Below, piece by piece: positions 3,912 to 18,285 of a stretch of DNA of 64,000 nucleotides (positions are counted from its first letter, which is position 1; every line of letters begins with the position of its first letter). Position numbers and translations under genes: made by a program. Under the pieces are notes generated by a model. That model had not been told where the DNA came from, did no database searches, and saw only the letters and a program-made list of their open reading frames with translations. Origin of the DNA: an uncultured Verrucomicrobiae bacterium. Lineage in GTDB: Bacteria > Verrucomicrobiota > Verrucomicrobiia > Chthoniobacterales > JAFAMB01. Location: assembly GCA_963837955.1 (NCBI GenBank), contig CAWIPH010000002.1, positions 3,936,001 to 4,000,000 of the forward strand. Direction: 5' to 3'.

Positions 3912-5388
3912 TTAACGCTTCAAGTCTTCCGCGATCGTCGCAAACTGCTCCAAGGCCGCTTCCAGTTCCTCGGCGATTTCGAGCGCGAGCACATCAGGAT
4001 CAGGCAGGTTGGCGCTGTCTTCGAGCGACTCATCCTTCAGCCAGAAAATATCGAGATTGACTTTGTCGCGTTTGAGCAGGTCTTCGTAGGAGAAGCTCTT
4101 GAAACGCTCGCTTTCAATGCGTTCGTGGCGGTTCTCTGGCGTGATAGCACGCGACGAAGTCATCAAGATCAGATCGTTTCAGAGCGTTCTCTTTGAGCGT
4201 GAAATGCTGGTTGGTTCGCAAATCGTAAATCCAGAGCTTATCGGTCCACGGTTTTTCGCTTGCGGGTTTGCGGTCGAAAAACAAGACGTTCGCCTTCACA
4301 CCTTGCGCGTAAAAGATTCCGGTCGGTAGACGAAGCAGGGTGTGAACATCGGCTTGCTTCAGCAGCTCGCGGCGGACCGTCTCTCCGGCGCCACCTTCGA
4401 AAAGGACATTGTCCGGCACAACGATGGCGGCGCGTCCATGTTGTTTCAGAATCGTAAAGACGTGCTGGAGGAAGTTGAGCTGTTTGTTGCTGGTCGTCGC
4501 CCAGAAATCGTCCCGGTGGACGATCAGCGATTGTTTTTCTTCGTCGCCGGCTTCATTGACGATCGTGACGCTGCTCTTCTTCCCGAACGGTGGATTGGTA
4601 AGGACCATCTCATATTCGCCGTGCTTCGCGCCGAGTGCGTCCTTCACCAGGATCGGCACAGACGCATCGTCGCCGCCGATGCCATGCAGTAGCAGATTCA
4701 TCGCGCAGAGCCGCGCCACGCCGTCCACGAGTTCCACGCCACGGAGTTGTTCCGCATTCAGGTAACGGAGTTGTGCCTTGTCGAGTGTTATGCCGACGAA
4801 TGAACTCGTGTGCCGCGAGCAGAAAGCCACCGGTGCCGCATGCTGGATCGCAGATGACAAACCGCTGTCTCGGTTCGGACCCGGCCTTGGCTGCATCACG
4901 TCCACGATCGCCTGGATCAACGGGCGCGGAGTAAAATACTGACCCGCGCCACCTTTAACATCTTCAGCATTTTTCTGCAGGAGCCCTTCGTAGGCGTCAC
5001 CTTTCACGTCGGTGCCAAGGCTTGACCATTCCTCTTTATCGATCAGGTCGGCGACCAACCGGCGCAGCTTGGCCGGATCTTGAACCTTGTTTTGTGCCTT
5101 GCGGAAGATGAGACCAAGTAATCCCGGCTTTCTTGCCGAGTTCCTCAAGCGTGTGCCGGTAATGGATCTCAAGCTCGTCGCCGTCAAGTTTCACCAGCTT
5201 GTCCCAGCCAAACTCCTTCGGGATCGGCGACGGTTTGTTGAATGGCGGACGGCTCTGCTCATCGGCCATTTAAGAAAGAGCAGAAACGTCAACTGCTCGA
5301 CGTAATCGCCGTATGACAGCCCGTCATCCCGGAGGATGTTGCAGTAGTTCCAGAGCTTTTGGACGATTTGATTTGGTTGGTTGGGCAT
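3912..5388 (-). pseudogene. hsdM: Type I R-M methyltransferase subunit, split by several frameshifts (real decay or sequencing indels)
   Basis: Fragments IVQKLWNYCNILRDDGLSYGDYVEQLTFLLFLK, GQYFTPRPLI, DPACGTGGFL and NPPF motif IV, with a C-terminal NLDIFWLKDESLED. Confidence 0.9.
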
Positions 5389-5392
5389 GATT

Positions 5393-6470
5393 TCAAAGCA
5401 GACGAATTACCCGGGGGGAGTTTAGCCGATTAATCTGCGGAACGCGGAAGTCGGACCTCAATCACACTTTCTCTTTTCAATTTGTTAAGAACTCTCTCGG
5501 CATGTTGCCGTTGAACGCCATGACTAAAACAGAAGTGCACGAGATCCCGCTCGTCCTTAAGTTGTCCTGATCTGAGTAGGCCCTCTAGCTCGCGTTCAAA
5601 AGCAGTTATCTTGCTTGGCCTGAAGTTATCGAAAGGCAGTAGCATTTCTCCCGGGGACACGTTATCTCGATTAATATCAAAGTCGGCCTCTCCATTAATC
5701 GCGTCTTTATTCCACGCTACTTGGAGGAATTTGTCCATTCCTAGCGGGTGAGCCGAACCGAAGATAAGTCCGTAAATGTTGGGCCCCTTTCGGATTGAAA
5801 ACGGTGCAAGGTAGTAAGCAGAGAATTCGGTACTAAGTCGGTGTAATAGTCCAATGCTGCGCGATGCACTTGGTAATGGTCGTCTGGACGGGTGATCTTC
5901 TGCTTGATCGCAGGATGATCACGAAAGCGATAAAGAGTGGACGACGAAAGGAAAAACAGAAAATCGCACGTCGGCGAAGTGACTAAGCTGAGAAACACTT
6001 CCGGCGTGACCTGATCCACTCCGAATTGATCGATAAAGAGTAGCTTGGCGGCACTGTCGGTCTTCAAGGGCTGCATGCACAGTCGTGGAGCGCTTCTTCA
6101 AAAGCCAATGCTCTTATGTCAAGCTCCACTTCCGCAAACGCAATCCGAATTCTTCGATTTTTGCTTCAAGTTGTTTGATTTTTTTCGGGCTCTTGTCGAA
6201 GAAGTGAGCGTGGACTCTTACTTGAGGCCAACCAGAGAAACTTTGGTACTCCTTCAGCTGCTTAAGTAACCGGAGTGGACTACCCCACACACCGGTCGAA
6301 TCCGTTCCAGGTCCTGCGAAAAAATCTGAAGATGTGAATTGCTCCGATCTTGATGGCTTAGCGGGCGCCAAGAAAACCGGTAGCCACTCGCGGGTATACA
6401 GTTCGAAAATCTGCAGCTTCGTTAATGTGCCTTCATCGAACGGCCTATTGTGAAATCCGCCTCGAGGCAT
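5393..6470 (-). pseudogene. tcmP: Three-Cys-motif partner protein (TcmP, methyltransferase-like fold), frameshifted
   Basis: Starts MPRGGFHNRPFDEGTLTKLQIFELYTREWLPVF; has DFFAGPG and LLFIDQFG motifs; adjacent to DUF5131. Confidence 0.75.
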
Positions 6471-6475
6471 CGGCT

Positions 6476-7265
6476 TCAGGTAAAGCGCAATTTCCTCACG
6501 CAAAGAAGAACGTGTAGCCACATCCGGAACCGGTGATCGAGTGCGCTCCGGAAATTCATCGTAGGTTCGTCCATCCAGTCGGCGACCTGTCTCGCTTTTT
6601 CGAACGCCGCCCCACTGCTTGAAGAAAAATGCAACCTTCGCTCTCTGGCATTGGTCCCGAAGGCTTCGGACCCACTCTTCCTTAATCGGGCGTGCGCCGG
6701 GTCCGCTCTCGCCACCAACTATGGCCCAGTCTATCTGGCGGAAATCGACCTTTCCCAAATCCTCTAACAAAGGCTCAATGGAAAGAAAGCGAACTCTCAC
6801 CGGTGCGGACCGCAGTACGTCGACCCGGGGAAGTCCGTGCTTGCGGTTCTCGACGCTCACACCCCACCAAATGTGCGGTTGTCGCGCGGTTTCTCGAAGG
6901 GAGGTTTTGAGGAGGGCAGCCATCCGTCCTGGGCGTTTGGTAAGGATCTGGTAGGTATGCCAATTGGCCAACATCATCACCCTAGCCACGGCGCCAATGT
7001 AGTCATCCGGGACATCTGGATGAAATAGGTCACTCATCGAATTCACAAAAACCATTCGCGAGCTACTCCATCGAAGCGGCTCGCCGAGTTTTTCGGGAAC
7101 GAGTCGGAGATCGAAACCGCGTTCAAATGGATGCCCGGGAACGCCGCGAAACCGCTCAGCAAATGTTTCCGCGTAACAGTTGGCGCAACCAGGGCTAATT
7201 TTCGAGCACCCACGCACGGGATTCCAAGTCGCATCGGTCCACTCAATCTTCGAGTTATCACTCAT
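6476..7265 (-). CDS. DUF5131 / phage Gp37-Gp68 family three-Cys (radical-SAM-like) protein
   Basis: SKIEWTDATWNPVRGCSKISPGCANCYA, FVNSMSDLFH, FLSIEPLL, WAIVGGESG and FFFKQWGG motifs. As given it reads through in-frame into tcmP, so the 3' end is uncertain. Confidence 0.9.
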
Positions 7266-7311
7266 AAGGCTCTCAATTCCGAACGGATCATATCAACGTG
7301 CCGAAATAAGA

Positions 7312-8799
7312 CTATCCAATATCTGCACGCACGAGTTTTCCAGTAAAAGCGCGGTGGAGGATGGATTGGCGTAGGCGCTCGGCGCGCTTCACGCTGGCAG
7401 TCACCAACGTTTCGAGTTCATCGATCACGGACAGCCGACGCTCCACTTCTGCCACTATGCGCCGCTGTTCGGCAAACGGCGGAACGGCAATCGGGGCGGG
7501 TCGAACTTCGCCGATATTTACTCCCTTTACCGCAACGCCACGGGCGACTCGGCGGAAGTAGCTCTGCGAATCTTCGCTGCGGAGGTGAATCGCGATATAG
7601 CGGCGATCGACCAGGGAGGTGACATCGAGGCGAGCGGTATCTTGGGTAATGTTCCCACCATTTAATTCAGTCGGGACTTCGGCGACGCGCCCATACGTCC
7701 CGCGGATCGCGAGGAGGAGATCACCGGCCTTGAGGGACGCGCGTGCGTATGCAGCTGCGATCTCTGACGAAGTGCGATGGAGCCCACTTACGTTAATGCG
7801 ATCACCCTTGATGTCTTTCACCTTCACGTAAGGGATTCCATGGGCGACGTTTTCTTTGGGCATGAGGATTCCGTAACAGATAACGCGCGTCGCGCTCGTG
7901 AGTTGTTCAAGGCTCGCGAGTACCCAACCCGTAGGTAGAAGCTCAGGTCCGAACCCGGGAGTAACGGTCGGGCTGGCGGGCTGATGGTATTCTCCTTTCC
8001 AATTGGCGGCTCTCGATGATTTGTCGTTAGTTAGGAGTCTGGCGAGCCTATCGGATTCCCACTGGCCGCGGCGTTCCTTGAGGATGCGATCCAGGAGTTG
8101 CTCACCAGTTTCATACGAGCCGCCTTCCCGCCGGGCGAGCTCGGCTTCTGTTGGAACCAGCCTTCCTTCGCAAGCGGCCTTCATTACGCTGGCACGGTAG
8201 CGTTTCAGGGCCGCCTGCACCCGCTTTAGCGACGCCACTCCGGCTTCCAGTCGGGTTAACTGCTTCTCAACTTCCGATACGATCCGATGCTGTTCGGAAA
8301 CCGGAGGCAGCGGCAGAGAGATGTTTTCGATATCTGACTTGCGTACGGAAGGAACAGTGGTAGCACGCGACAACTCGTCGAGCTTCAGAGTGCACGCGTA
8401 GTGAAAAAGGAAGCATGCATCTAGATCGTCCGACGCGGGAGACAGCCCCATAACGTTGTTGTCCACTAGGGCGGCCTTACTTAGCATCGCCCGTCGATTC
8501 AAAGCGATCGCGGCGCCAATTTTCGCAAAAACGATGGTGTTTGGCGGCAATGGTCTAGCGCGGATCGAGCTAGCATCCGCGTGGCTGATGTAGTGGTTGG
8601 CGCCCTTGAGGAATCGCTCGTTGCGCTTCCATGCTTCGGAAATGTCGCCGACCTTAAAAAAAGGAATTTCGCCTTGAACACGGCCTTGTAATCGTTCGGG
8701 AAAGCCAAAGCCGGCCAGAATCCTGCAAGATTCACCGAGGGTTGTGAGTCTCCATCCTCGCGGGAGGCAGTGGGTTGTTGAGTTTGCGTGTAAGCTCAC
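7312..8799 (-). CDS. hsdS: Type I R-M specificity subunit
   Basis: Two TRDs with repeated LPPxxEQxRIV motifs; ends LRQSILHRAFTGKLV; GTGA overlap with the hsdR stop. Confidence 0.92.
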   Translation of the reverse strand: MSLHANSTTHCLPRGWRLTTLGESCRILAGFGFPERLQGRVQGEIPFFKVGDISEAWKRNERFLKGANHYISHADASSIRARPLPPNTIVFAKIGAAIALNRRAMLSKAALVDNNVMGLSPASDDLDACFLFHYACTLKLDELSRATTVPSVRKSDIENISLPLPPVSEQHRIVSEVEKQLTRLEAGVASLKRVQAALKRYRASVMKAACEGRLVPTEAELARREGGSYETGEQLLDRILKERRGQWESDRLARLLTNDKSSRAANWKGEYHQPASPTVTPGFGPELLPTGWVLASLEQLTSATRVICYGILMPKENVAHGIPYVKVKDIKGDRINVSGLHRTSSEIAAAYARASLKAGDLLLAIRGTYGRVAEVPTELNGGNITQDTARLDVTSLVDRRYIAIHLRSEDSQSYFRRVARGVAVKGVNIGEVRPAPIAVPPFAEQRRIVAEVERRLSVIDELETLVTASVKRAERLRQSILHRAFTGKLVRADIG

Positions 8800-11577
8800 G
8801 CGGCAAGAGCGAGGTTAAGTTCGTCCATCAGCGGCCAGAGGCGCTTCGCCGAAGGCGCGGTAAATCGGGCCGAGCACATTGTCAGCTTCGAGGTGTTCGC
8901 GATCCACGCTGCCGCTGGCACTGACGTAGTCCCGCATCTTCTCAAGCCACGCCATTTGATCGGCTGTGAATGTTATCCCTTCCCGACGTTTGGTCTTCGA
9001 TCCACTCAGCGAATCGGGTGCGTACATGTTGCTCAAAGGGCTCGAGAACCGGTTCTTGTTCCAGCGCGACACGGACGAGGACACAAGATCAGTAAACCGG
9101 CGCGTAGCGGAGCTGGTCGGTCCAGACGAGGTGTGTCGGAACTGAGAGAATGCCGACCAAAGATTCTCAACCGGGTAAGCTCCAAAATCGGGCTTCAATT
9201 TTTCTTCGAGTTCCCTCAGACATTCTTCCGTAAGACGTTGGCGGTAAGGCCGGCTGTAGAGGATCTGCAACGCTGCGATCTCGTTCCGATGTTGTTCGAT
9301 GTATTCCTTGAAAGATCGGACCATGTTCTCAGCCTTTTCCTTTGCGGCTGCATCGAAGCCATGATCCACTGACGTTGTCGATCGTAACGACATCGATGGT
9401 CTTGTTCGTTGTCTTTCTTCAGCTTGGCCAGAGTATCGCGCAGCACCGGATTATCGAAAGGCGCGCACGCTTGTGCGATCAGGTTCTTGGCGAGCTTCTT
9501 GGAACAACGATGCATCGACCTCGTCTGGACTGGCGCCGGCTTACCGGTCGCAGCCTCGGCGGCAGCATCGGGATCGATCGCGCGCAATAGGGCAGCCGGA
9601 AAGCGCTGTAAGACTCGATCCACCGGATACCTCCTCAATCTTTTTGCGGTCAGCTGCTGATAGTGCTCGATCCAGTCGAGCGAGGCGTCCAGCCAGATGT
9701 GGTCAGAGTATCTTCGTCTCGTTTGCCAAGGGCGACACCGAGCAGAAGTTTATCAAACGCAACCGACGGTTTGCGTTCCAATGGACGCGAATCGGTCTTG
9801 TCGCTCTCGCACACGCCGACGGCGTCGACGATGACGAAATGAGTTTTGGCGATGCGCCTCCGCGCCGCTGACGGCTTGAAGATCGGTCGGCGATAGGACG
9901 CGAGTACCGCGCCCTTTCATCTGCTCGAAATAAACGCGGCTGCGAACATCGCGAAAAAAGAGCAGGCATTCCAAAGGCTTTGATGTCGGTTCCGGTAGCA
10001 ATCATATCGACTGTGACCGCGATTCGCAGTTGCGGCGACGTGCGGAATTCCTGGATGAGCGATTCCGATTTTTCATATCGTTTCGTCTCCGGATTGTAAG
10101 TTTTGTAAGTGATTTTCTTGCAGAAATCGTTTCCTTTGCCAAACACCTCGCGGCAGATGTGGACGATGTCTTCGGCATGCGAATCGTCCTTAGCGAAAAT
10201 CAAAGTCTTGGGCACGAGCTTGCGACCTGGGAAGAGTTCGGTGAACAGCACATCCTTGAACGTCTGCAAAACAGTGCGGATTTGCGAGGGGACTACGACC
10301 GAGCGATCAAGGTCTCGTGCGCGCGTAGTCGAGATCTTCGTCTAATCGTTCCCAGCGCGTTTTACGCGTCTCTTTGCTGCGCTTGATCGATATACAGACC
10401 TTTCTCGACCTGTCCTCCTTCTTCGGTCACTTGGGTTCGAATCCGATAGACGTCGTACCCGACATTGACGCCGTCGGCCACAGCTCGTTCGTGGCCGTAT
10501 TCCATCACGAGATTTTGTTTGAAGAAAGCCGATGGTCTGTTTGGAAGGCGTCGCGGTAAGGCCGATGAGAAATGCGTCGAAATATTCGAGCACTTGCCGC
10601 CAGAGATCATAGATCGAACGATGACATTCATCGGTCACGATGAAGTCGAACATCTCGATCGGAATTGCGCGGATTGTACTGGACTTCCGCGGGCCGCGAA
10701 TCAGCCGCAGCCGAGTTCGAACCCGGAAATTTCGTCAACGTCTTCGGCCAATTCTTCGCCGCGCAAAACGGAATAAAGGCGTTGAATGGTGCGAAACTGT
10801 GACACGCGCGACTGGATCGATGTTGCTCGAGGCAAGGTGCTGGACGTTGTAAATCTCAGTGAACTTCCGGCCGGTATCAGGCGTCGTGTACTGCTGAAAT
10901 TCGGTCACGGTTTGTCGGCCTAGATTACTGCGATCGACCAGGAACAAGACTCGTCGAGCGCCGGCGTGTTTGATCAGCCGATAAATGAACGAGACTGCTG
11001 TGAACGTCTTTCCTGCGCCGGTCGCCATTTGAATCAGCGCACGAGGATGATTCTCAGCAAATGACTCCTCGAGATTCGTGATCGCCTCAATCTGGCATTG
11101 ACGCATGCCGTGCGTGATCAGGAGTCGGCATCGGCCGAAGTCGTGCGCGGAGAGAAGTAGGCTTCAGAGGCCCATTCGCGGAGTGTCTCAGGTCGATGAA
11201 ACGCAAAGACATTGCGTGCCCGTGGATCGGGATCGCGATAGTCGGTAAAGAACGTTTCCGCGCCGGTCGACTCGTAAACAAATGGCAAGCGACCTGATGC
11301 GACCGACTTCCATCCAATCGGGCAGGCTCTCCGCATACTGCGCCGATTGCTCGGCCACACCGCTAAGTAATGTTCCGACTTTCTTTGCTTCAATGATGCC
11401 AACGGCCTTTCGATCGACACAGAGCAAATAATCAGCCTTGCCCTCCTTCATCGGTACCTCGCGAATGGCGATCCCAGAACCGGCGGAAAGATTGACTTGC
11501 CTATAATCCTGAACCAGCCAACCGCATTGCTGAAGAAGCAGATCGATCTGCTGGCGCGCTTTCTCTTCTGGCTTCAT
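8796..11577 (-). pseudogene. hsdR: Type I restriction endonuclease subunit (EcoAI/EcoEI-like), multiply frameshifted
   Basis: Fragments with ADYLL..IIEAKK nuclease motif, MATGAGKT, DECHRSIY, GLTATP and QMKGRGTR, plus an EcoEI-like C-terminus. Confidence 0.9.
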
Positions 11578-13285: not shown

Positions 13286-13493
13286 GCGAGCCGGATCCTG
13301 AAACCACGCTGCGCGAGTTCCGCGAATATTTCGCGAGCAACTAGGAGGCCCGTGACTACCCACAGTTTCTATAGTAAACTAGTTGCAATTCCGCCCGCCA
13401 ATAGTCTTGATAGCAGAAGAGTTTTTTCGACCAGCAAGCAATTATTTGCGAAATAGGATCGGCCTTCAAATTGTGACCATGCAGGATTCACCA

Positions 13494-13925
13494 ATGACGA
13501 AAGATGACGCAATACTCGCTGCCATGGCAGCGGGAGACGTGAGCGCATTTACGCCGGTTCAGGTTCAGAAGCTGCTTTTCCTCTTGGACAAGAAGGCAGC
13601 TCCCGCTCTTGGTGGTCCTCTTTTTGATTTTCGGCCGTATGATTACGGCCCTTTTGACCGCGAAGTATATGACAGGCTGGATGAATTGGCTGCGAGCGGT
13701 TTGGTGGATATAGCCGGGCAATCGTTCAAACGTGACCGGCACTATAGCCTGACTCAGGCCGGCTTGGCGAGAGGACAAAGGGCTTTGGACACCCTGCCTG
13801 CGCCGGTTAAAAGCTACATGCAAAGGCTTTCTAGGTTTGTTACATCCCTGAGCTTCGTTCAGCTCGTTTCTGCTATTTACGGGGCGTATCCAGAGATGCG
13901 CGTTAACAGCGTCTTCGAAGACTAA
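13494..13925 (+). CDS. SocA/Panacea (DUF4065)/YwgA-like winged-helix protein
   Basis: VQKLLFLL...FDFRPYDYGPFDREVYDRLDELAASGLV...YSLTQAG...IYGAYPEM; AGGA RBS 7 nt upstream of the ATG. Confidence 0.7.
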   Translation: MTKDDAILAAMAAGDVSAFTPVQVQKLLFLLDKKAAPALGGPLFDFRPYDYGPFDREVYDRLDELAASGLVDIAGQSFKRDRHYSLTQAGLARGQRALDTLPAPVKSYMQRLSRFVTSLSFVQLVSAIYGAYPEMRVNSVFED

Positions 13926-13936
13926 ACGCTGAGCGA

Positions 13937-14716
13937 ATGACGGCAATCGTTGGGATTCTCTGCCGTGAAGGAGTGGTCATCGGCACGGATTCCGCAGCGA
14001 CCTTTTCTGTTGGCACGGGAGCGTACGCCATTCGGACGATCGAGGCACCAAGCAAAAAAATCGAGGTTATAGATGATAGAATAATCGTTGCTCCGACTGG
14101 GGAAATCGGCTTGGGCCAGCGTTTCTGTCATTACGTATCGGTCTTTAGTCAGGAAAAAAAATTTGGTAAAGATGCATCTCACATCCAAGTAGCCTCTGAG
14201 CTGGCTAACCAAGTGCTCAATCACTTCAGAACGACAGGTATTCAGTTAGGGCAGGTGGGATTCGGTTGTCTTCTTGCATTTCCTCTCGGATCAAAGCTAC
14301 ATCTTTGCGAGTTTCCCGCCGGTGCCTTTCAACCTGAGTTCAAAACCAAGGAACTTTGGTTTTCGTCAATGGGAAGTGGGCAAGCGATTATTGATCCATT
14401 CTTGGCTTTTCTGCGCAAGATCTTTTGGCCTCGGAGCAACGCAGGCCTTCCAACTCTCAGCAGCGGAATATTCCTGGCGACTTGGGCTCTGACCCACGCT
14501 ATCGAGCTCAATCCTGGTGGGATAAACGGTCCGATTCAGCTTGCGACGTTAACGAACCTCCAAGATCACATCACGGTTAAGATGCTTTCCCCGTCTGAAA
14601 TCTTTGAACACGAGACAAATGTAAAAGCCGCGGAAAACCACTTAGCGGACTACCGAAAAGAGTTACAGAAAGAAGCCGGCCAGGGGATTCAGATCCCAGA
14701 CCCGGCCGAAGAATAG
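13937..14716 (+). CDS. Proteasome beta-subunit-like Ntn hydrolase (putative threonine protease)
   Basis: After Met removal the protein starts with Thr1 and has Asp17 (GVVIGTDS), a KKI Lys33-equivalent and an MGSG motif. Confidence 0.8.
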   Translation: MTAIVGILCREGVVIGTDSAATFSVGTGAYAIRTIEAPSKKIEVIDDRIIVAPTGEIGLGQRFCHYVSVFSQEKKFGKDASHIQVASELANQVLNHFRTTGIQLGQVGFGCLLAFPLGSKLHLCEFPAGAFQPEFKTKELWFSSMGSGQAIIDPFLAFLRKIFWPRSNAGLPTLSSGIFLATWALTHAIELNPGGINGPIQLATLTNLQDHITVKMLSPSEIFEHETNVKAAENHLADYRKELQKEAGQGIQIPDPAEE

Positions 14717-14860: not shown

Positions 14861-14940
14861 GCACCACTTTAAACCGAATACCCTGACGAGATCAGGGAAG
14901 CCCTATAGGGTACTCGCAAGAGTGTAGGTTTTCAGGGTGC
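14861..14940 (+). ncRNA. Candidate structured RNA at the 3' end of the DUF3800 gene (DUF3800-motif-like)
   Basis: Outer stems GCACC/GGTGC and AAACC/GGTTT enclose three hairpins. A GCAA tetraloop and a U-G pair favour the + strand. Confidence 0.5.
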
Positions 14941-15693
14941 TTTCTTTTTGATTTGGAGCCTAAAAGTCCAAAGCTTAAACCTCATCACGTGGGTGTTCGT
15001 ATCGAAAAGTAGATGGGGCCATCCGAGCTTTTCCGCCAGGTATTTGGCGAGCTCAACCTTGGCGGGGCTCGCATCTTTTCGAAAGTGATGTCGATTCCTT
15101 TGGTACCCAACCGCGCCAGCGATGATATCTAGCATTTGGGTAATGTCGCACTCTTTCGAGTTCCTGGGCTCAATCTGGCGGAAAGGGGATGTTCGAATAT
15201 TGAATTTAGAAGCCATCCCTTTGTTCAAAAACGCCTTTAGCGTCGTAAGTTTATAAGACGTGTCGCGCTGATCTAAGAAAACAATGAACCGCTTTGGTGC
15301 TTTGCCTGAGAAGTACGGTCTACCAAAACAATGTAGAAGTAGTTGGTAATAGAATTTGTAAAAGCCTACTTCGTTGTCGCCGTCACTGAAAAAGGCATGA
15401 TTAATTTGGTGGCAATCGAATATGAGCGCTTTGAAGTGCACTACGTCAGACGTGGTCAAGTCAGTAAAGATGTCGATGATCTGTTTGTATTCGCCGAGTT
15501 TGCCTCGCGAGACCTTTGTCCACTTCAACTCAGCGGTCATTTTCGCTTTTTCGCGGAATGTACGGATTCTCTCGAGGACATCCCCCACCGACTTGGCATC
15601 CATAATCAGCCCAGCCAAAATCATGTAACGATCTTTGGTTTGACGACTTTCATCGCAATAGACGTGATAGACGGGCGTGACCTCCTGGCTCAT
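14932..15693 (-). CDS. DUF3800 domain protein (RNase H-like fold)
   Basis: N-terminal YCDES, ELKWTK and C-terminal QMLDIIAGA motifs. Confidence 0.85.
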   Translation of the reverse strand: MSQEVTPVYHVYCDESRQTKDRYMILAGLIMDAKSVGDVLERIRTFREKAKMTAELKWTKVSRGKLGEYKQIIDIFTDLTTSDVVHFKALIFDCHQINHAFFSDGDNEVGFYKFYYQLLLHCFGRPYFSGKAPKRFIVFLDQRDTSYKLTTLKAFLNKGMASKFNIRTSPFRQIEPRNSKECDITQMLDIIAGAVGYQRNRHHFRKDASPAKVELAKYLAEKLGWPHLLFDTNTHVMRFKLWTFRLQIKKKAP

Positions 15694-16044: not shown

Positions 16045-16491
16045 GGCAATTTCGAGTGCTCGAATGATGTAACAGCCATTTTAGAACGATAATCATCCGT
16101 ATGATAGCCGCTCGGATGGTTGCGAGCTTTAGGCTGCGACCTTTGGAGTGTATTTCTCTCGGATGGGCGCTCGCCTGGCCGGCGGCATTATCCAATAGCC
16201 TTGGCGAGCCGAGTTTATGAGTTCACGACCTAGATTCTTGCTAGGATTCATTTCCGGAGACGCTTTTACGCGTCAATGTTCACGAAAGCAAGCAAATAAA
16301 TAACACTGTTCTCATGTGTTGTTCTATATCACGACACGGTATCGTGTGTCACGCGATTTACGCTAACGGATAAGCCCGGAAGAATGTGGACTTGTTACCA
16401 GTCCTCCTGGCAGAGCGTTACCAGTCCGATTTCTCGTCGGCTCGTTTTGTCAGTTGTAACTCTATGATAGCAAGAGTGTTACAGAGTAGAG

Positions 16492-16579
16492 CGGTGAGGC
16501 AGGGATTCGAACCCTGGGTACCCTTTTGGGGTACAACGCTTTAGCAAAGCGCCGCTTTCGACCGCTCAGCCACCTCACC
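16492..16579 (-). tRNA. tRNA-Ser(GCT)
   Basis: Reverse complement GGTGAGGTGGCTGAGCGGTCGAAAGC...TT-GCT-AA...long variable arm...GGTTCGAATCCCTGCCTCACCG; CCA not encoded. Confidence 0.95.
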
Positions 16580-17050: not shown

Positions 17051-17228
17051 CAGAGGACCAGACATCGGCCTTACGCTGACGCAGATGCGCGGTCGCCGGA
17101 CCGCTACCGACCTCCGCCACACCGTTGCGCCGTTACGCACATTCGCGCCCTTTCGCCGTTCATTTCCTACATTTTGCAACCTTTCTCACAGCGCTGGTGT
17201 CCTCTGATTGAAGAGGAGGATGTGCATT

Positions 17229-17507
17229 ATGAGAAACAAAATTGTCTATTTCCCGCTCGGAGCCGAGGCTCGTGCCGAACGAATCAATGCCTATCGGCCT
17301 ACGACCCGAGCCGAAACAGCTATTGCAATTTGGCTCTGCGGCTGGGCCATGGTAACCGCGGGGGAATGTATTCGCCAAGTCAGCAAGTTGCCGATTGCAG
17401 CCGCTCCGCCGGCTCACCTGATCTATGTGGCCCTTACCCACGCCGGCCAGTCAAACCCGTGCCGGCGACAATCTTGCAACTTTTCTCAGGCCGACTGTGT
17501 CCTGTGA
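17229..17507 (+). CDS. Small membrane-peptide-like protein, paralog 1
   Basis: GAGGAGG RBS; shares KIVxFP...RAExxIAIWLCGWAxxTAxECIRQ with the next ORF. Confidence 0.6.
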   Translation: MRNKIVYFPLGAEARAERINAYRPTTRAETAIAIWLCGWAMVTAGECIRQVSKLPIAAAPPAHLIYVALTHAGQSNPCRRQSCNFSQADCVL

Positions 17508-17511
17508 TTGA

Positions 17512-17694
17512 ATGAACCAGATGAACAGCAAGATTGTCAATTTCCCCTCCCCGATAGCCAAAAGCGGCTTCGAACGGATCGAGGGCTACAAGTGCGCCAA
17601 CCGAGCTGAAGCTCTGATCGCCATCTGGCTCTGCGGCTGGGCCTTGTTAACGGCGGCGGAATGTATTCGCCAAATGAGTTTTCTCGCAATTTGA
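17512..17694 (+). CDS. Small membrane-peptide-like protein, paralog 2
   Basis: Tandem paralog of the previous ORF. Confidence 0.6.
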   Translation: MNQMNSKIVNFPSPIAKSGFERIEGYKCANRAEALIAIWLCGWALLTAAECIRQMSFLAI

Positions 17695-17790
17695 TCGATC
17701 ACGGCAACGATTCCCACGATAATGGTTAGTACCGCACCTTTGCCGCTGGCCGGTTACCATCGCCAGCCTCTCTGCGGACTCGAGACCACG

Positions 17791-18285
17791 ATGGCGCAAG
17801 TCCAGGAGTTCGAGACGCTGGTCCGAAATTACCAGAATATGGTGTTTTCGGTTGCGACTAGAATTGTCGGAAGTGTCGCCGATGCCGAAGATATTACCCA
17901 AGAAGTATTTATTAAGGCCTATGACCGGTTTGCCGATCTACAACAGAGTAACTCAATCGGCGGTTGGTTAAAAACCGTCGCAACAAACCTGTCCATCAAT
18001 CACCTGAACCGTTACCGCGCGCGTTGGCGTTTTTTTTCGGAACAAGAAGGCGAACCGGAACTGGCTGCTCCAGTCGAGAAAGTCGACGACCGACGCGAAC
18101 TCTTGGAACTAGCTATTCGGAAACTACCCGATGCACAAAGAGTGCCACTTGTTCTCTTCCACTTCCAAGAATTGAGTTACGAAGAAATTGCTACCAAACT
18201 CGGCATCTCGCTCGCCAAAGTGAAAACGGATATTCATCGGGCTCGGGAAACGCTACGCAAATTGATTGGAAACCGACATGAATGA
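17791..18285 (+). CDS. ECF RNA polymerase sigma factor
   Basis: DAEDITQEVFIKAY and WLKTVATN (region 2); LSYEEIATKLGISLAKVKTDIHRAR (region 4). Confidence 0.92.
   Translation: MAQVQEFETLVRNYQNMVFSVATRIVGSVADAEDITQEVFIKAYDRFADLQQSNSIGGWLKTVATNLSINHLNRYRARWRFFSEQEGEPELAAPVEKVDDRRELLELAIRKLPDAQRVPLVLFHFQELSYEEIATKLGISLAKVKTDIHRARETLRKLIGNRHE

Follow-up and report, generated by a model that had tools for sequence, protein, structure and literature searches.

The present study concerns two adjacent genes at positions 13494 to 14716 of a 64,000-nucleotide stretch of DNA (the window; positions 3,936,001 to 4,000,000 of contig CAWIPH010000002.1, assembly GCA_963837955.1) from an uncultured Verrucomicrobiae bacterium. 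An original prediction, made from the sequence alone, had described them as a SocA/Panacea-like gene coupled to a proteasome-like threonine hydrolase, on one strand and with an 11-nt gap between them, and this layout proved exact when compared with the open reading frames (ORFs) and sequence of the window. Gene 1 (13494..13925, forward strand, 143 aa) encodes a Panacea/DUF4065-like winged-helix protein resembling the C-terminal domain of DarG, a putative antitoxin, inhibitor or adaptor. Gene 2 (13937..14716, forward strand, 259 aa) encodes an N-terminal nucleophile (Ntn) hydrolase of the proteasome fold with a catalytic Thr1 and no propeptide, and the 11-nt intergenic spacer (13926..13936, forward strand) forms the operon junction. 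An alternative in-frame ATG for gene 1 at 13479 would add five residues, and is less favoured because an AGGA motif lies 8-11 nt before the start at 13494 and the family alignment begins at the Met encoded there. The sequence motifs initially noted in the two proteins were all recovered: gene 2 starts Met-Thr and contains D18 (Asp17 after removal of the Met), K41 within SKKI, and G146-S147-G148, while gene 1 contains the signature QKLLF...F.F.PY.YGPF, and none of these likenesses is due to chance. Promoter and terminator scans around the operon returned sites no more numerous than in shuffled sequences.

The association of the two genes was examined in one genome per species, covering 185,579 species, in which 143 relatives of gene 2 were found and the best 80 loci kept for pairing counts. 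These loci are spread over the Pseudomonadota, Acidobacteriota, Verrucomicrobiota, Planctomycetota, Chloroflexota, Nitrospirota/Nitrospinota, Latescibacterota, Omnitrophota, Elusimicrobiota and Bacillota, among others, and also take in two lineages of the candidate phyla radiation (CPR) and four Methanomicrobiales archaea. A gene 1 homolog was detected by tblastn adjacent to gene 2 in 78 of the 80 loci, directly upstream on the same strand in 72 of these and directly downstream in a tail-to-tail arrangement in six (L036, L042, L061, L062, L071 and L077). Of the two unpaired loci, one begins at the edge of its contig (L024), and in the other (L059) only a remnant of gene 2 follows a stop codon, the first residues, Thr1 among them, having been lost. 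Gene 2 was found at only seven loci in the viral contigs of IMG/VR, with gene 1 upstream in six and the seventh cut at the contig start. Conserved co-occurrence had been proposed as a check on the original prediction, and these counts indicate that pairing is near-obligatory; the central idea of a coupled Panacea-like and proteasome-like module is therefore strongly supported at the level of genomic linkage. Pairwise distances of the gene 1 and gene 2 proteins are also correlated (Mantel r 0.455, n=64, exceeding all 999 permutations), from which it follows that the pair is inherited as a unit.

Spacing between the genes in 63 tandem pairs of other genomes ranged from -4 to +19 nt. Clustering of all ORFs from the 80 loci returned no third conserved gene, the next commonest neighbour of the pair being an IS1595 transposase (8/80 loci). 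The immediate neighbours, 138 genes in 73 de-duplicated loci, included no HslU-type AAA+, ATP-grasp/transglutaminase, alpha subunit or Pup genes, and no HslU-type AAA+ gene lies beside the pair in the window, in agreement with the earlier remark that the usual partners of proteasome homologs are missing. No protein of 455-2000 aa matched gene 2, which is weak evidence against fused gene 1-gene 2 forms, and none of the near-length gene 2 matches listed is long enough to be such a fusion. At one locus in a Chloroflexia genome (L041 4570-4993) the gene 1 homolog is split between two overlapping tblastn segments, suggestive of a frameshift, and the gene 2 downstream of it matches residues 1-244.

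The pair is mobile as well as conserved. Within the window it is carried by an integrative island of ~20.9 kb at a tRNA-Ser gene, the right attachment (att) repeat of which (35 nt, 16487..16521) overlaps the 3' end of tRNA-Ser(GCU) (16491-16579, reverse strand). A search for att sites in the window alone found none, and the left 35-nt copy was located in the upstream 20 kb, 4.4 kb before the window begins (L086 15601-15635), next to a tyrosine integrase (PF00589, 1.1e-18). Elsewhere the pair travels on insertion sequence (IS) units that hold only an IS1595 transposase and the two genes. A 2,476-bp unit of this kind is present in four copies in one Vicinamibacterales genome (L048, L049, L050 and L056), two comparisons between copies being 100% identical and one 99.96%; another Acidobacteriota genome has two copies (99.9%) of a 2,385-bp unit (L078 and L079). 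The pair is single-copy in its host genome. It was not found in four genomes of the same genus or in a further 36 relatives, the one exception being a marginal match interrupted by stops. Mobility of the pair is well supported by these observations, and the two genes are tightly coupled, co-inherited and self-sufficient as a mobile unit. The original prediction had described a mobile module in satellite cargo, a term that applies only loosely: the element is an integrative island with a tRNA-Ser site, a tyrosine integrase and a DUF5906 protein, and no evidence was found that it is a phage satellite.

Gene 2 matches Pfam family PF00227 with 31.0 bits (cut-off 22.4), the match covering residues 2-100 only, and has weak NCBIfam matches to archaeal beta (3e-6) and alpha (0.0046) subunits. 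A family profile built from 30 members finds archaeal proteasome beta subunits in the PDB (4.8e-7), and the resulting alignment matches Thr2 of gene 2 with the mature Thr1, and K41 with the lysine of KKI in the Archaeoglobus fulgidus beta subunit. The AlphaFold2 model of gene 2 (predicted local distance difference test score, pLDDT, 90.2; predicted template modelling score, pTM, 0.88) gave at least 500 Foldseek matches at E≤0.001, and all rows among the matches listed are 20S alpha or beta subunits. Structural alignment with VIA-align produced a Z-score of 21.7 and a root-mean-square deviation (rmsd) of 2.6-2.7 Å over 197 residues for the Thermoplasma and Archaeoglobus beta subunits (6bdf_1 and 1j2q_H), and a Z-score of 20.5 over 222 residues for Anbu (5nyw_J), the latter alignment including the long C-terminal helix that occupies residues 219-246 of the gene 2 model.

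Following the proteasome numbering Thr1, Asp/Glu17, Lys33 and Gly47, as given by Fuchs et al. (PMC8665760), the catalytic residues are retained almost throughout the 254 full-length relatives of gene 2 (T2 in 248, D18 in 249, K41 in 251 and G55 in 252), as is G146 of the GSG motif (253/254). A Met-Thr or Val-Thr start is found in 247 of the 254, so the family lacks a propeptide. Gene 2 is a proteasome-fold enzyme with the full catalytic set (Thr1, Asp17, Lys33-equivalent, Gly47-equivalent and GSG) and no propeptide, as the earlier claim of an Ntn fold with intact catalytic layout had it, and the conservation of these residues indicates that it is an enzyme under selection for catalysis. Motifs that are invariant and specific to the family comprise G-x-x-G-x-x-Q-R-F (residues 55-63), Q-P-E-x-K (132-136) and N-P-G-G (192-195). 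The last ~10 residues (window 14686-14713) form a hydrophobic-Pro-x-Pro tail beyond a variable linker, in which P254 is nearly invariant and which may serve as a docking motif. A word-seeded search returned 173 relatives of gene 2 at E≤1e-3, and an exhaustive phmmer search of 1.84 billion representatives returned 960 clusters (50% identity) at the same threshold, 686 of them at ≤1e-10 and 205 at ≤1e-30. Nine relatives looked up by accession are named only 'hypothetical' or 'proteasome subunit beta', and the ESM Atlas holds only generic 'proteasome subunit domain-containing' clusters.

The affinities of gene 1 were assessed from profile matches and predicted fold. Nine of 32 family members match the Pfam model SocA_Panacea (PF13274, DUF4065) at E≤0.01, with 2e-6 as the best value. 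Gene 1 itself has NCBIfam matches to SocA (0.0026; 17.5 bits for the SocA equivalog, cut-off 190) and DarG (0.028), and PADLOC matches to the C-terminus of Specificity_I (2.2e-10), to PDC-M19A (5.8e-9) and to the C-terminal half of DarG (6.5e-5). A gene 1 profile finds 3,508 proteins, some of which carry a precomputed PF13274 label or the names 'uncharacterized phage-associated protein' or 'YwgA', and one relative in UniRef, from Legionella worsleiensis, is named as Panacea domain-containing. Residues P21, Q25, K26, F29, F46 and G52-P53-F54 are invariant in all 32 aligned partners. In the AlphaFold2 model (pLDDT 94), a helix spanning residues 21-35 bears the invariant Q25 and K26, and G52-P53-F54 lies in the second of two strands (47-49 and 52-54). 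At E≤0.001 no structure in the PDB matches this fold apart from the DarG chains of the DarT-DarG complex 7yk3 (E 3e-4, query-normalised template modelling score, TMq, 0.62); MarR and PadR regulators rank next, with TMq 0.25-0.44 and rmsd about 10 Å. According to the description of Kurata et al. 2022 (PMC8832971), the Panacea fold consists of a conserved central helix, a small three-stranded sheet with a 'GPV' strand, and surrounding helices. The gene 1 model fits this description, the Q25-K26 helix corresponding to the central helix and the G52-P53-F54 strand to the 'GPV' strand. DUF4065 proteins are further reported to share homology with DarG's C-terminal helical domain, which binds and inhibits DarT (PMC13621843). 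On the basis of this profile, PADLOC and fold evidence, rather than a Pfam pass, gene 1 is regarded here as belonging remotely to the Panacea/DarG-C-terminal fold family, or as a sister to it.

Taken as a whole, the evidence gives an even chance that the pair is a toxin-antitoxin (TA) or abortive-infection module of the PanA-PanT type, with a proteasome-like Thr1 protease as its effector. Under such a mechanism the gene 1 protein would bind the protease and keep it harmless, either by blocking the active site or by preventing the subunit assembly on which activity depends. If phage infection, stress or loss of the element removed or titrated the gene 1 protein, the protease would be set free to assemble and to attack proteins of the cell or the phage until growth stops, the outcome being abortive infection or addiction to the mobile element. 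Inhibition is favoured as the role of gene 1 because the tested PanA proteins neutralise their toxins directly, the nearest solved fold is that of an inhibitor domain, and the only protease gene found without its partner is defunct. Kurata et al. report that the tested PanAs neutralise without ClpXP or Lon, and conclude that PanAs in general act by direct inhibition of type II (PMC8832971). They also report the antitoxin-first order to be the commoner among PanAT pairs (943 vs 325; PMC8832971), and the present pair, with gene 1 first and a spacing of -4 to +19 nt, matches this commoner arrangement. As in type II TA systems, the two genes are adjacent, tightly coupled, mobile and self-sufficient.

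Several findings weigh against this interpretation, under which toxicity, neutralisation and a role in defence are putative. An exposed Thr1 need not mean toxicity, since HslV, with the same Met-Thr start, does no harm when its ATPase is missing. Complex modelling, suggested as a check at the outset, scored gene 1-gene 2 at 0.42 (using both alignments), compared with 0.00 for the best control, contacts agreeing by at least 77% between runs and partner pLDDT being at least 82. Of 157 solved complexes 116 attained the mark, as did 2 of 215 mismatched pairs; at scores of 0.60 or under, only 18 of those 157 attained it and so did both mismatches. The check gives weak support to a complex, in a score range in which a pass is wrong more often than it is right unless the pairing was already likely. 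The Mantel correlation likewise speaks for co-inheritance, not for binding. The six tail-to-tail pairs cannot share a transcript, which is atypical for type II TA systems. Gene 1 scores 18.4 bits against SocA_Panacea, under the gathering cut-off of 25.7, and the initial SocA/Panacea-like assignment is carried by the profile, PADLOC and DarG fold evidence. PadR-type winged-helix models match exactly as many of the 32 gene 1 family members (9), so that gene 1 may have a DNA-binding role. Gene 2 has zero PADLOC families at E≤1 and zero PHROGs matches, and a tblastn search at E≤1e-5 returned no match in PLSDB plasmids or GenBank phages. Many immediate neighbours of the pair are housekeeping genes, such as those for ThiC, YchF, isocitrate dehydrogenase and chaperonin, and the defence genes found nearby represent an association seen without a matched control rate, not a measured enrichment.

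Unlikely, though the best placed of the alternatives, is that the product of gene 1 is an adaptor or cap: seated on a self-compartmentalised ring formed by gene 2 subunits, it would deliver or gate specific substrates, for example proteins of phages or mobile elements, with no toxin involved, much as SocA hands SocB to ClpXP. SocA, the founding Panacea protein, is itself a proteolytic adaptor (PMC8832971), and both the obligatory pairing and the complex score suit an adaptor as well as they suit inhibition. The alignment of the long C-terminal helix with that of Anbu suggests an oligomeric assembly. As the surroundings contain no conserved AAA+ unfoldase or other regulator, gene 1 would have to supply any gating or selectivity. 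On the other side, the tested PanAs needed neither ClpXP nor Lon (PMC8832971), the closest solved fold to gene 1, the DarG C-terminal domain, is an inhibitor (PMC13621843), and the one orphan gene 2 is a truncated remnant, as addiction predicts, albeit a single case. If gene 1 is an adaptor, the pair would be a minimal system that targets substrates to a proteasome-like chamber without ATP; inhibitor or adaptor, either outcome bears on the evolution of regulated proteasomal proteolysis.

It is improbable that the pair is a repressor and anti-repressor comparable with ImmR/ImmA, or an autoregulated protease operon, in which gene 1 would act as a winged-helix repressor and be cleaved by gene 2, or gene 2 would cleave another regulator, so that genes of the element are turned on. 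The PadR-type profile matches noted above and the weak sequence and fold matches of gene 1 to PadR, RosR and MarR structures would suit such a role, as would the location of the pair in integrative islands and IS units. The MarR/PadR fold, however, aligns far less well with gene 1 than DarG does, by the TMq and rmsd values given above. An integrase or transposase is an immediate neighbour in only a minority of loci, many others lying amid housekeeping genes with nothing obvious to regulate, and the IS1595 units have no genes beyond the transposase and the pair. A proteostasis function outside genetic conflict, in which a stand-alone ATP-independent peptidase, together with a small chaperone or assembly factor, would remove proteins that are unfolded or damaged and would have spread horizontally for its ordinary physiological benefit, is very improbable: for orphan proteasome homologs, housekeeping roles independent of ATP have been suggested by Fuchs et al. 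2021 (PMC8665760) and many of the neighbours are metabolic genes, but the pair is extremely patchy (0 of the 40 relatives searched with a sound match), multiplies as IS cargo, adjoins defence genes, includes a gene 1 of an antitoxin-type fold family, and occurs in a host that already has a canonical 20S-like beta/alpha gene pair.

Of the described systems, PanA-PanT is comparable in that a small Panacea-like gene directly precedes the gene of an unrelated enzyme and is closely coupled to it, in that the two genes are highly mobile and do not follow taxonomy, and in the G-P-hydrophobic motif (here YGPF) in a small sheet beside the QK helix (PMC8832971). The pair departs from it in that gene 1 falls below the Pfam Panacea cut-off and the partner is a proteasome-fold protease. 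The word 'proteasome' has no occurrence in the main text and searchable supplementary files of Kurata et al. 2022 (PMC8832971; one file was unreadable), nor in the main text and both supplement files of the NetFlax paper (PMC10440598). Among solved structures, gene 1 is matched best by the C-terminal domain of DarG (7yk3), which inhibits its toxin by direct binding (PMC13621843), and the same part of DarG is found by weak sequence matches; in contrast to DarG, gene 1 has no macrodomain and its partner is not an ADP-ribosyltransferase, and identity is only 18-19%. The type VI SocA-SocB system of Caulobacter also ties a Panacea-domain protein to a compartmentalised protease (PMC8832971). There, ClpXP is a housekeeping protease encoded elsewhere and SocB is a separate toxin, degraded by ClpXP via SocA, whereas here the protease itself is the conserved partner, belongs to PF00227 and is not SocB, and no third gene is involved. 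Taken jointly, gene 1 and gene 2 match no anti-phage system listed in PADLOC-DB v2, gene 1 alone matching parts of Specificity_I, PDC-M19A and DarG.

HslV, Anbu, BPH and the 20S beta subunit have the fold and catalytic residues of gene 2 in common, as the structural alignments with archaeal beta subunits and Anbu illustrate. HslV has HslU, an AAA+ protein, as its operon partner, unlike the pair, which has no HslU-type gene in its 138 neighbours or in the window. The Anbu operon contains ATP-grasp, alpha-E and transglutaminase-like genes, and these domains are missing among the neighbours of the pair. The canonical 20S beta subunit has an adjacent alpha gene and an autolysed propeptide, whereas gene 2 has no second PF00227 gene beside it and no propeptide. 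In contrast to all four, gene 2 has a patchy and mobile, not vertical, distribution. Fuchs, Alva and Lupas 2021 described 22 new proteasome-homolog families, including the 'widespread proteasome homolog' (WPH; representative WP_040339656.1), and report having found no genomic context or co-occurrence suggestive of function for the orphan families (PMC8665760). WPH is described as occurring in bacteria and archaea, as similar to both alpha and beta subunits, as lacking a propeptide and as having a long C-terminal (coiled-coil) helix like that of Anbu (PMC8665760). The gene 2 family shares these features and is most likely WPH, the two being likened by description only. Since 22 such families have been catalogued by Fuchs et al., the protease family itself is probably not new, and it is its linkage to gene 1 that probably is. 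The gene 2 family, in contrast to what that paper reports, has a near-obligatory partner gene, the first found for an orphan proteasome-homolog family and the first suggestion of a function for it. No description of a Panacea-like and proteasome-like pairing was found in open-access papers and bioRxiv full text, consistent with the statement in the original prediction that the pairing was undescribed.

Carried by IS elements and islands, the pair moves among at least a dozen bacterial phyla as well as CPR bacteria and methanogenic archaea. Should the effector of a PanA-PanT-type module be the protease, a Thr1 Ntn protease would be a new enzymatic class among TA toxins and defence effectors, and the range of Panacea partners would be wider. 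We propose more tentatively, and at somewhat less than even probability, that the pair represents a widespread and hitherto unrecognised class of abortive-infection/TA systems in which a Panacea/DarG-like protein restrains a propeptide-less miniature-proteasome effector, through its assembly or its active site, and phage attack frees an unregulated, ATP-independent degradation chamber to which proteins of host or phage would fall victim. Were abortive infection the function, this would be the first physiological role for an orphan proteasome-homolog family of bacteria and archaea, and proteasome-type proteolysis would have been recruited for prokaryotic immunity or genetic conflict.

Pfam annotation of the 138 neighbours identified restriction-modification (R-M), Abi_2, McrB-N, SNF2/methylase, Uma2, integrase and transposase genes. 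PADLOC matches at 1e-15 were obtained for 16 of them, two of which (a TonB receptor and an ATP-binding cassette ATPase) were judged spurious; the others include GajB, AbiD, DrmD with a type III methylase, type I, II and IIG R-M, CapH and a dCTP deaminase. In a Methanolinea locus (L030) the pair is embedded in a type I R-M operon between its HsdS and HsdR genes, and is followed by a second, longer Panacea-like gene (L030 3518-4342, reverse strand, 274 aa; PADLOC PDC-M19A 3e-78).

The neighbours of the pair in the window have PADLOC matches to PDC-M04A, type I R-M and PDC-M30/M41. The original prediction had described a mobile module flanked by R-M and DUF3800 genes, and both these flanking genes and the PADLOC candidates were found, by Pfam and PADLOC, within the ~20.9-kb island. 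The type I R-M locus (4114..11577, reverse strand; Pfam, and PADLOC MTase_I 4.9e-123 and Specificity_I 4.2e-77) contains HsdM (4114-5187) and HsdS (7312-8799), both of which look intact, and between them a DUF5131 gene (6114-7265, 383 aa) that matches the PADLOC candidates PDC-M30B/M41B (1e-99) and, in its C-terminal part, PDC-M30A, all on the reverse strand. The HsdR gene (8815-11577, reverse strand) is broken into at least five ORFs (HSDR_N, ResIII/DEAD, two without a Pfam match, and EcoEI_R_C), and is probably a decayed restriction gene at a locus that has retained methylation. The match of gene 1 to Specificity_I had raised the idea of a Panacea-like tail on HsdS, which was rejected, as the HsdS of the window is unlike gene 1 (hhalign probability 0.2%). 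On the other side of the pair and convergent with it lies the DUF3800 gene (14932..15693, reverse strand; Pfam PF12686, 2.3e-11; PADLOC candidate PDC-M04A, 6e-42), which is not conserved beside the pair in the other loci.

A third, 28-nt copy of the tRNA-Ser 3' end is present another 8 kb upstream of the left att repeat (L086 7481-7508), suggesting two integrative elements in tandem at tRNA-Ser, an inner one of ~20.9 kb and an outer one of ~8 kb. The outer segment carries genes for a tetratricopeptide repeat protein and a periplasmic binding protein. Elsewhere in the host genome (G000:C2:1330034-1331142; L083 1354-2948), two adjacent PF00227 genes encode a 273-aa beta-like protein, in which the Pfam match begins at residue 50, followed by a 259-aa alpha-like protein. 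This gene pair, situated between LysM and amidase genes, looks like a canonical 20S-type core, judging from its sequence. Beyond the right att repeat, just upstream of an extracytoplasmic function (ECF) sigma factor gene (17722-18285), two small ORFs on the forward strand (17208-17507 and 17512-17694) share the motif ...AIAIWLCGWA..TA.ECIRQ... and may be paralogous small membrane proteins or a repeat.

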